From Escherichia coli (lineage in GTDB: Bacteria > Pseudomonadota > Gammaproteobacteria > Enterobacterales > Enterobacteriaceae), in NCBI RefSeq assembly GCF_045037415.1, contig NZ_CP173438.1: DNA of 64,000 bases; one strand, written 5' to 3'. The translations under genes were made by a program, and so were the position numbers. The notes under the pieces were generated by a model that ran no database searches, was not told the DNA's origin, and saw only the letters and a program-made list of their open reading frames with translations. This document shows, one piece after another, positions 52,022 to 54,822 of the stretch (positions within the stretch are counted from its first letter, which is position 1; each line of letters begins with the position of its first letter).

Positions 52022-52393
52022 CGAACAGTGCACTTATCTACCCTTCGATTTCAAATACATCGCTTTATGGCTGGTTAATCGGTAAAAGTTGCACATTTTG
52101 ATAGCGAGAAGAGCTGTCTTTATGAATTCCGAAAAGCGCCCTTCTACCCTCTATAACCATTCTTTTTTACCTGTATTGGCCGCAACATACCTCACCCACG
52201 AAGTGGTTGTAGCAATTCGTGGGCTAAAGGTCCGCATTATATGAAACGGGAGGGCGGTAGCATTTCTGATATTACATGCCTCAATTTTGCTGAACTATTG
52301 GCTATCCTGGACCTCAAAAATCTGGTCATAAGATAGATTTTTTAAGGGAATACGGAGTAAAGGTGTGGAAAACTAATTAATAGGTTTGTCTTA

Positions 52394-52795
52394 ATGCTTC
52401 AGAAGATTGGATACATGGAAGAAGATAATATTATAGAGAAAAAACCATGGCGTGGGATCCCACCTGAATACACGGATAGATGGAGGGAAATTTATAACAA
52501 CGCTGCTCCCGAAGAAGGGATGCATTTATCAGATGCTTGTCCAGTATGTGGTGATACGGAATTATATCGCTATTATTCTCTGTTAAAAACGCAACCACGC
52601 TTATTAGGAGGGATTATGTATAAAGGACCTGGAAGTTATTGGGAATGGTGTGGGTCTTGTCGTTCCTATGAACATATGTCAGGCTATGTACCAATATCGT
52701 GGGTTGTGGAGTTATCAGGAATAGATCATTCAAAATTAACGGCCATTCCAGATATGATTGATATTGCAAGACATAAAAATCATTACTTCTCTTAA
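52394..52795 (+). CDS. Hypothetical small protein with paired CxxC motifs
   Basis: 133-aa ORF in the AT-rich segment; CPVCGD and CGSCRS about 35 residues apart. Confidence 0.4.
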   Translation: MLQKIGYMEEDNIIEKKPWRGIPPEYTDRWREIYNNAAPEEGMHLSDACPVCGDTELYRYYSLLKTQPRLLGGIMYKGPGSYWEWCGSCRSYEHMSGYVPISWVVELSGIDHSKLTAIPDMIDIARHKNHYFS

Positions 52796-52907
52796 ATATT
52801 ATCTAATTAGTTTTCCCGGACAGGGCAAGTTGGCGAAAATAGTGAGGAGCATCACGTTTTCCATCCTGACTGACACGCCTACTGGTGATTAAAATCAAAC
52901 CTATGGA

Positions 52908-53469
52908 ATGACGAAAAAGATGGAAAGGAAAAGCATATCAAGTAATCAGTCAGGAAGATATTCACAACAATCACCTGAATCAGTAGATCGAATGAAGGAT
53001 CACTTGTCACATAATATAATTGTCGATATAGATCTTAATTCACCAGGAGTTGTTACTAAACTCGATTTATTATTAAGAAAAAATAAAATATCAAAAACAT
53101 GTCTCTGCGGGATGTTTCCAGTATCTGCCCTGAACAGAAAGACGTTACCAGTATACTTGTCGGGCTATGGGCTTTAGATTTTTTATAATCATCACCAAAC
53201 ATATATGACAAAATAAAAACAAATGAATTTCTTCTCTCAAACAGTGATATTAAAACAATATCAACAGGATTAGTTGATATAATACGGCATTCTAATTTTG
53301 AAGCTTCAGAAGATGATAATGCAATAGAGTACCATTATGCTGCATGTTTGAGGCTTTATAGATTGCTTGGTGATGAAGCAGAGGATATATTGGTTGAGGA
53401 ATTATTACAACATCCAACAATAACCATATTAAGGGCAATCGGTTTTTTAGTTGGACATGAGATAAAATG
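52908..53469 (+). pseudogene. Hypothetical gene apparently split by a frame break
   Basis: ORF 52908-53177 (frame 0) followed by an ATG-less open frame 53180-53469 (frame 1) in the AT-rich segment. Confidence 0.3.
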
Positions 53470-53819
53470 AACCATTAATAAAAATACATTTTGTATACTT
53501 AATGAAATCTCTGAAGCATATTCCGAGCAATTATCTATTGTCGCAAAAGACGTATTAATTGAAGATGTTGCGCGAGTTAATGCAATAAATCAATTTCTAT
53601 AAATTTACGATATTTATTAGATAATTATGCCGAGTATTCAATTTGGAGATGATCAGGCAGACTATCCGTTTTTATCGGAGGGAGTCATCTGGCTAAGGTT
53701 GATGTGATATGTCCGTTTTATCGTCAAGGTTAAACGGAATATAAGAAATGACCACCTCGCTTCAGTCCTTATAGAGAGCGACTGTCGTAACCTTCTCCCA
53801 AGTTTAAAGAGAACCAGAT

Positions 53820-54368
53820 ATGAAAACTTATCATCTAAGTTCAGCAAACAGAAGTGCAGAACATTATATAATGTTCTCATATGGTGTATCATTACGACTA
53901 TCTAATTACCTTTTTAACAGTAAACCGGTTGCAAGAGATTTTTTTAAACATTTAAAAGGAACTACGCAGCGAGGTTTAACAGATAAGCATTTAGACAATT
54001 TAGATTACTTCAAGGGCTTAGGAGCTTATCACATTGTATCTAAACGCTTCGTCGAAGCAATGAAATCATATTTAAAGGAAGATGTAACTTTTCATGCAAT
54101 GCAAGTCTCAGGAAGGAATACTTCTCACGACTTATACCTTTTACAAGTCAATAAAACTTTGCCAATAATTAAAGAAACATCTTTCGATTTAAACAATGAT
54201 CGTGTATTTTCGCCACCCATTTTCAAAAAAAATCATGACATATCATTTCTAATAGCCAGAGAAGAGAATGTCTTAATGAATCATATTGTCATCGTCAGCG
54301 ATGAATTTGTTTCTTTGTGTGCACGACATCAATTAAAAATAAACTTCCGACAAACACTTACGGAATAA
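53820..54368 (+). CDS. Hypothetical protein, 182 aa
   Basis: ORF in the AT-rich segment; no recognised motif. Confidence 0.45.
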   Translation: MKTYHLSSANRSAEHYIMFSYGVSLRLSNYLFNSKPVARDFFKHLKGTTQRGLTDKHLDNLDYFKGLGAYHIVSKRFVEAMKSYLKEDVTFHAMQVSGRNTSHDLYLLQVNKTLPIIKETSFDLNNDRVFSPPIFKKNHDISFLIAREENVLMNHIVIVSDEFVSLCARHQLKINFRQTLTE

Positions 54369-54455
54369 ATTAAACTTAAGACATCCATCAATATTATTGT
54401 TAGTATACATTCGATCTCAGCGTATTTATTAACAAAAACGACAGGAAATATTCAT

Positions 54456-54803
54456 ATGAAAAAAGTTTATTTTGTTCATCGTGATAAGAATGCAATTGAA
54501 CGTCAAAGTGACGGTGTAGAATTTTGTTTCATCCCTGAGTTCAATGACGGAAGAATTTATTTCTATTGTCATGAATATGATATATTTTGGCGTTCAATCA
54601 AGGATGCTGGTGACTATGCCTGGTGCTGTAATTTCCATCTAAAGGGAATTATACGTCCGGCAACTCTTATTGAGATATCAAATTCCGATTTAATATCTTA
54701 TATTGACTCTATTAAAGAATATGAAATAGAGAACAGTAAACTCATAAACATTAACTATATTCATTTGAATTATGATTTTTTAAATATTCATCAAAATACC
54801 TAA
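54456..54803 (+). CDS. Hypothetical protein, 115 aa
   Basis: ORF in the AT-rich segment; no recognised motif. Confidence 0.45.
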   Translation: MKKVYFVHRDKNAIERQSDGVEFCFIPEFNDGRIYFYCHEYDIFWRSIKDAGDYAWCCNFHLKGIIRPATLIEISNSDLISYIDSIKEYEIENSKLININYIHLNYDFLNIHQNT

Positions 54804-54822
54804 AATAGAGGAACTCATATTA

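Follow-up and report, generated by a model that had tools for sequence, protein, structure and literature searches.

We analysed a 64,000-nt stretch of the Escherichia coli chromosome (contig NZ_CP173438.1 of assembly GCF_045037415.1; hereafter, the window) and in it an AT-rich insert of 2.8 kb at positions 52022-54822, which we call the cassette. As annotated in RefSeq, the host locus is the chromosomal Flag-2 locus for lateral flagella, and the insert sits in its variable region 1 (VR1), between lfiJ (fliJ) and lfgN (flgN). The G+C content of the cassette is 34.5%, ~20 points under its flanks; the flanking genes range from 54 to 61%, and the whole window has 51.9%. Over 500-nt segments, the G+C fraction drops from 0.54-0.57 at 51000-52000 to 0.31-0.41 over 52000-54750 and rises to 0.55-0.62 past 55000. 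At third codon positions (GC3), the three open reading frames (ORFs) of the cassette have values of 0.25-0.28, vs 0.60-0.72 for the lafV-like, glycosyltransferase, TagD-like, fliJ and fliI genes. By its non-core genes, its position between lfiJ and lfgN and its deviant G+C content, the cassette thus qualifies as Flag-2 VR1 cargo.

A preliminary description, made from the sequence of the window, had placed an AT-rich segment between a repetitive extragenic palindromic (REP) pair and a TagD-like gene, at a convergent junction. Both statements hold: the glycosyltransferase gene on the left is on the + strand, the TagD-like gene on the right is on the - strand, and every cassette ORF is on the + strand. 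That description had also listed four small proteins of 133, ~187 (frame-broken), 182 and 115 residues. The three intact ORFs are as described, except that the first has 126 codons from the RefSeq start at 52415, the 133-residue version corresponding to 52394-52795 in the ORF listing. The broken gene exists as well, but our reconstruction gives ~225 codons rather than ~187. The inventory is completed by a remnant of an IS1-family insertion sequence (IS):

52415-52795, + strand: ORF126, 126 residues (133 if the start is at 52394), a small cytoplasmic zinc-ribbon-type protein; candidate immunity protein of an undescribed family
52908-53602, + strand: pseudogene for a ~225-residue protein that appears helical from its sequence, delineated by three-frame translation and alignment to Escherichia fergusonii
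53633-53730, + strand: degenerate left end of an IS1-family element, ~95 nt, comprising the terminal repeat and the first ~12 codons of insA
53820-54368, + strand: ORF182, 182 residues, a distant member of the Imm11/DUF1629/MXAN_0049 fold; orphan
54456-54803, + strand: ORF115, 115 residues, from a conserved family of ~105 residues that has no Pfam model; candidate immunity protein

The pseudogene carries two 1-nt deletions and two in-frame stops relative to the E. fergusonii copy, which is itself broken by a separate lesion of its own. Its reconstructed product has no match in Pfam, and an 89-residue fragment has none in NCBIfam or PADLOC. The IS1-family remnant has ~83% matches to sequences adjoining IS1-family transposase genes on Klebsiella and Buttiauxella plasmids.

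Slot polymorphism and mosaic structure

We surveyed the insertion slot in E. coli genomes with a 6.2-kb query running from the glycosyltransferase gene to fliJ. Carriers of the cassette were counted among 5426 complete E. coli genomes, as matches to positions 51900-54900 of the window with ≥99% identity over ≥80% of the length. The flanks are present in ~1279 of these genomes, 407 of which have this cassette, while at least 575 E. coli genomes have an empty site; thus, the content differs between Flag-2 loci. Some of the 407 carriers are labelled O25b:H4-ST131. The empty allele reads glycosyltransferase stop codon, REP pair, ~20 nt, TagD stop codon, and its comparison with the occupied alleles sets the left boundary of the cassette directly after the REP pair. 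The slot and its borders are as follows:

49474-51912, + strand: GT2-family glycosyltransferase gene, 812 codons, the conserved left neighbour of the slot ('glycosyltransferase' in RefSeq; orthologues match Pfam Glycos_transf_2)
51924-52021, no strand: REP pair, the left edge of the insertion slot, kept in empty-site alleles too
52022-52393, + strand: non-coding 'leader' of the cassette, common to all occupied alleles according to blastn comparisons between slot alleles
52796-52982, no strand: recombination junction between a left module of the Escherichia albertii/E. coli type, whose match stops at 52797-52804, and a right module of the E. fergusonii type, whose match starts at 52983
54823-55218, - strand: gene for a TagD-like glycerol-3-phosphate cytidylyltransferase, the conserved right neighbour of the slot (RefSeq; NCBIfam TIGR01518, E value 4e-33, under the curated cut-off)

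Further out, RefSeq annotates flgN and a lafV/FliB-like gene on the left of the glycosyltransferase gene; on the right, fliJ and fliI follow the TagD-like gene, itself annotated as adenylyl/cytidylyltransferase. The REP pair has thousands of 80-90% matches throughout E. coli genomes. The Rfam search returned weak matches to naRNA4 and ES036 over it (51945-52026), below the gathering threshold, which we take as REP-derived similarity rather than putative genes; it gave no other match. The leader was considered as a gene and dropped because it harbours only a 51-codon ORF with no homologues noted.

Other E. coli genomes have other genes in the slot. An alternative cassette found in 128 of them comprises a 273-codon gene and an overlapping 179-codon gene and looks like an effector-immunity pair. 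In E. coli JA0265 (L004 2955-4308), which has this cassette in the same slot, the two genes overlap by 8 nt. The 179-residue protein has a hydrophobic N-terminal segment, and the 273-residue protein is probably the member of our alignment with a weak match to Pfam DUF4347 (E value 6e-4). Further alleles contain genes for proteins of 126, 166, 212 and 179 residues, or ISAs1 remnants with other small genes. In the allele of the goat isolate E. coli R32_14_1F (L038 5818-13378), a GNAT acetyltransferase gene is present, several intact and broken copies of ISAs1 are interleaved with hypothetical genes, and ORF182, ORF115 and a DUF4259-type gene follow at ~93% identity. Comparisons with blastn indicated that modules have been swapped between slot alleles at intergenic borders. 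We also considered an integron-like gene-cassette array and dropped it: no integrase lies close by, and the module borders are marked by IS remnants instead of recombination sites, although no formal attC search was made.

The insert is dispensable, polymorphic cargo. The suggestion in the preliminary description that it was acquired horizontally is supported by its foreign composition and by the empty or different content of the slot in most E. coli Flag-2 loci. This distribution also bears on the idea that the insert might consist of flagellar accessory genes, such as Flag-2 chaperones or components of flagellin glycosylation or of a teichoic acid-like modification. The cassette genes do lie between a glycosyltransferase gene and a TagD-like cytidylyltransferase gene, in the same direction as the former, and the excerpts of De Maayer et al. 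(2020; PMC6993521) used here describe VR1 (lfiJ-lfgN) as a hotspot for low-GC cargo that codes mostly for flagellin-modification enzymes. However, the cassette is missing from the many E. coli Flag-2 loci with an empty site, which are otherwise similar, and unrelated genes replace it in others. In addition, no cassette protein matches a flagellar accessory or glycan-pathway family in Pfam or NCBIfam, no enzyme or chaperone domain was found, the composition is foreign, and toxin/immunity arrays outside flagellar loci contain homologues in Proteus, Streptococcus and metagenomes. A role in the flagellum is thus most improbable.

The occupied slots of related species revealed the cassette to be a mosaic. 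Its left 0.8 kb, i.e. the leader and ORF126, is 88-92% identical to the heads of E. albertii arrays and of arrays from other E. coli genomes. Its right 1.8 kb (52983-54817), which comprises the pseudogene, the IS1-family remnant, ORF182 and ORF115, is 92.7% identical to a segment in the same slot of E. fergusonii CP070951. There, the shared segment is preceded by genes for VgrG, a DcrB-family (Eag-like) protein, a PAAR/DUF6531/RHS protein and, in the immunity position, a 166-residue protein, and by an ISAs1 remnant; it is followed by a DUF4259 gene and then tagD. The RHS protein is frameshifted and ends with DPIGL...IDPLGL and a toxin tip. As the right 1.8 kb is syntenic with the tail of this vgrG-rhs island, the cassette corresponds to the distal end of such an island, fused to the head of another array. 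No rhs ORF, i.e. a YD-repeat core ending with PxxxxDPxGL and a C-terminal toxin, is present in 52022-54822; we found one only in the E. fergusonii allele. The cassette is therefore a remnant, not a member, of the class of Rhs elements and vgrG-rhs islands.

Additional features of these counterparts were noted. Part of the leader (52067-52268) has an 86.8% match in CP070951 (L025 9231-9433), ~570 nt upstream of vgrG. In the VR1 island of that genome (L025 5683-21212), rhs is split into frames of 587 and 794/801 codons, and the glycosyltransferase gene is probably a pseudogene, as its region lacks any gene call. In the E. albertii slot (L022-L024 10462-13893), the ORF126 homologue is followed by genes for an LprI-family protein (PF07007) and three proteins with signal peptide-like N-termini; the array further codes for a DUF4259 protein and a 111-residue protein. 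These look like genes for periplasmic and cytoplasmic proteins of the immunity type.

Several database records appear to be mislabelled. Flag-2 loci or whole chromosomes are filed as plasmids (CP054241.1, NZ_CP104632.1 and NZ_OL790811/2, the sequences being 834-kb and 100-kb E. coli and 4-Mb Proteus pieces), and two assemblies labelled DH5alpha (H101-H102) contain the Flag-2 junction between the glycosyltransferase and tagD genes, which K-12 derivatives should not have. Both sets are probably misassigned. Apart from those to the IS1-family remnant, the matches of the cassette region in the plasmid collection are Flag-2 loci on such records, probably chromosome pieces under a wrong label.

The three intact proteins and the neighbourhoods of their homologues

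ORF182 is the cassette protein for which a fold can be assigned. A search with hmmscan found no Pfam family, including Imm11 (PF07791), even at E ≤ 10. Full-length matches with E values of 1e-13 to 1e-4 were obtained with phmmer, some of them to recognized Imm11 relatives: 13 of the 35 relatives in the alignment have an Imm11 match at E ≤ 0.001, and one of them (P0064, E value 1.7e-9) belongs to a cluster named 'imm11 family / DUF1629'. An exhaustive phmmer search was needed to reach these relatives, as a word-indexed protein search returned only the Escherichia copies. The fold of ORF182 also agreed with that of the archetype, MXAN_0049. We thus regard ORF182 as a distant member of the Imm11 fold, through a link that is transitive and structural. 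No toxin gene adjoins it in the window or in E. fergusonii, which makes it an orphan. A homologue lies beside SUKH and SUFU genes.

The ORF115 family is conserved at 50-65% identity across Proteobacteria, Streptococcus and Corynebacterium. Its structure model is confident (predicted local distance difference test score 90.8) and has no solved structural neighbour. The genetic surroundings of its homologues are more telling. In one metagenomic lineage (L014), a 156-residue orphan Rhs tip (...NPAEYVDPLGL followed by a toxin domain) stops 4 nt before the ORF115 homologue, and the family thus already has a candidate partner toxin. In another lineage, the order is an Rhs gene with a barnase-type RNase tip, a Barstar gene, the ORF115 homologue and a second Rhs gene. 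In Proteus mirabilis, the ORF115 copy is the last gene of an array in which orphan Rhs tips are paired with immunity genes, Imm53 and barnase/Barstar among them. Finally, a 246-residue CbrC-like protein (colicin E2 tolerance) of Streptococcus gordonii (AlphaFold database A0A139NAQ2) contains an ORF115-type domain with 52% identity.

The succession of a barnase-type Rhs tip, Barstar and an ORF115 homologue recurs in two unrelated bacteria (L019 2599-4320 and L028 1-3967). The three genes may form a travelling module, or the ORF115 homologue may be a second immunity gene for that toxin.

The alignment of the ORF126 family shows an invariant CPxC...CxxC motif. In E. albertii and in other E. coli alleles, the slot opens with a homologue, and another one (P0049) is encoded in an array with Imm70, DUF2247, SUKH and a HopBF1-kinase toxin fragment. 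Homologues of all three proteins, then, recur in polymorphic-toxin or polyimmunity neighbourhoods, and some occur alone. ORF115 and ORF126 may represent undescribed immunity families. The alignments of the three families, used as profiles, retrieved nothing from the PDB sequences.

Together with the Imm11 fold of ORF182 and the synteny with the E. fergusonii island, these contexts support the guess in the preliminary description that the genes are orphan and immunity-like. Its other guess, defence genes in the anti-phage sense, found no support. A defence system against phages or a toxin-antitoxin module of type II, carried as an island, would be in keeping with AT-rich small genes in a variable hotspot, and other E. 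coli Flag-2 loci hold EcoRII/Dcm according to the excerpts of PMC6993521. However, none of the four cassette products matched a PADLOC family at E ≤ 1, PHROGs had no match, and the phage collection contained no DNA match to the cassette. No nuclease, ATPase, kinase or other effector domain was found, and the only protein with an assignable fold resembles the immunity protein of a secreted toxin. We therefore deem this option very unlikely.

Selective constraint and interpretation

We propose that the insert is probably a small, heterogeneous polyimmunity cassette that remains from a type VI secretion system (T6SS) vgrG-rhs island. Three unrelated intact ORFs and a pseudogene lie on one strand, one product having an Imm11 fold and two being candidates by gene context. 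According to this proposal, the Escherichia slot once contained a vgrG-rhs effector island, of which the right 1.8 kb would be the immunity tail, as seen in E. fergusonii downstream of vgrG, the DcrB-like gene, rhs and the cognate immunity gene, and the left 0.8 kb would be the head of an array of the E. albertii type, also found in other E. coli genomes. Recombination would have joined the two modules, with IS1-family and ISAs1 remnants left at module borders. The resulting string of unrelated orphan genes of the immunity type would thus comprise ORF126, the dead gene, ORF182 and ORF115. Each intact product would stay in the cytoplasm, bind one class of incoming toxin domain and block it, the toxins coming from competitors by way of T6SS/Rhs or comparable systems; for Imm11 proteins, they are typically nucleases of the HNH, AHH or SHH types. 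The carrier would therefore be protected without making a toxin. We infer that the three proteins are expressed and neutralize toxins; their putative immunity function is deduced from homology and gene context.

Several observations weigh against this proposal. ORF126 (in either version), ORF182 and ORF115 have no direct match in Pfam, NCBIfam, PADLOC or PHROGs. There is no toxin gene in or adjoining the cassette within the window and hence no cognate pair to name. Stand-alone homologues of ORF115, and one of ORF126, occur in Corynebacterium, in Stenotrophomonas and on one metagenomic contig, surrounded by housekeeping genes. A scan of the cassette for promoters and terminators revealed no enrichment over shuffled sequences. 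In a few carriers, an IS1 cuts ORF115 to 94 codons (L036 2557-3532; ~54740 in the window), and in a few others, an IS2 lies just upstream of ORF182 (L037 1938-3166; ~53800 in the window); the cassette genes are therefore not indispensable. Conservation within E. coli is uninformative here, since the 407 copies hardly differ from one another. Finally, the ratios of nonsynonymous to synonymous substitution rates (dN/dS) between E. coli and E. fergusonii or E. albertii are 0.34 for ORF182, 0.62 for ORF115 and 0.24-0.36 for ORF126, the values of 0.34-0.62 resting on 20-36 substitutions per gene. They are much laxer than those of the flanking genes (0.01 for fliJ and 0.16 for the glycosyltransferase gene) and suggest a constraint that is weak yet below neutrality, given the small counts.

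A rival reading is dead cargo, i.e. decaying debris of a former Rhs island with no present function, whose three frames would still be open owing to the youth of the lineage. Four lesions have already made a pseudogene of one of the four genes, the cassette contains an IS1-family remnant, IS1 and IS2 insertions are tolerated in some genomes, the dN/dS value reaches 0.62 for ORF115, the 407 copies at ≥99% identity act as one clone, and most Flag-2 loci manage without the cassette. Nevertheless, both E. coli and E. fergusonii, which differ here by ~7% at the nucleotide level, have ORF182 and ORF115 intact, whereas the middle gene decayed independently in each of them. All three dN/dS values are below 1, members of the ORF115 family are still 50-60% identical across phyla, and ORF126 is open in E. 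albertii too. We therefore consider dead cargo unlikely, although it is the main alternative to a functional polyimmunity cassette.

A bolder version of the proposal seems to us rather doubtful as a whole. In it, ORF115 and ORF126 would be the founding members of two immunity families, so far undescribed and spread horizontally, and the lineage-specific cassette, whose carriers appear to include ST131 strains, would truly protect against the Rhs/T6SS toxins of gut competitors and aid colonization. Short of this, three 'hypothetical proteins' of 407 complete E. coli genomes become testable candidates for immunity to contact-dependent toxins. The Escherichia VR1 slot has also served as a landing site for a vgrG-rhs effector island, whose immunity tail would have outlasted the weapon. 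The gain is better annotation, not a new principle.

Relation to known systems

Orphan immunity genes and polyimmunity loci have been described by Zhang et al. (2012; PMC3482391), and orphan modules of Rhs and contact-dependent growth inhibition (CDI) systems by Poole et al. (2011; PMC3150448). Like polyimmunity loci, the cassette contains tandem, co-directional and structurally unrelated small genes of the immunity type without a full toxin gene; it is AT-rich and horizontally spread, with interleaved IS remnants, and the orthologous stretch trails an Rhs toxin gene. In contrast with them, it is very short, has three intact genes and no orphan toxin tips left, and is located in a flagellar locus rather than beside a T6SS or CDI locus. 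In addition, only ORF182 is tied to a named Imm family, and indirectly.

Classical E. coli Rhs elements have a GC-rich core, with AT-rich tips, downstream ORFs and ISAs1 (H-repeat) elements as their usual companions. The E. fergusonii allele of the slot is a vgrG-rhs island, and the AT-richness of the cassette fits the tip and immunity part of such islands. However, vgrG, an rhs core and a toxin tip are all missing from the window, where only the immunity tail of the distal end is left, fused to another head module.

The archetype of the Imm11/DUF1629 family is MXAN_0049 of Myxococcus xanthus (PDB 6a4c), which confers immunity to the nuclease MXAN_0050. ORF182 shares only ~9% identity with it, has no match to the Pfam model and lacks an adjacent nuclease toxin.

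Regarding Flag-2 cargo, the excerpts of PMC6993521 report many hypothetical VR1 genes, as well as VgrG, Rhs and Imm26 in VR1 of E. fergusonii YH17130. The cassette has the same position and the same low-GC signature as that cargo. In those excerpts, these E. coli hypothetical genes are not assigned to immunity families, and the alleles of the sub-slot between the glycosyltransferase and tagD genes are not resolved. Thus, the insert is most likely of a kind already known, combining orphan immunity genes, polyimmunity loci and VR1 cargo, rather than a new system. The new elements are the assignment of these genes, the series of sub-slot alleles and two families without a Pfam model that are candidates for immunity proteins.

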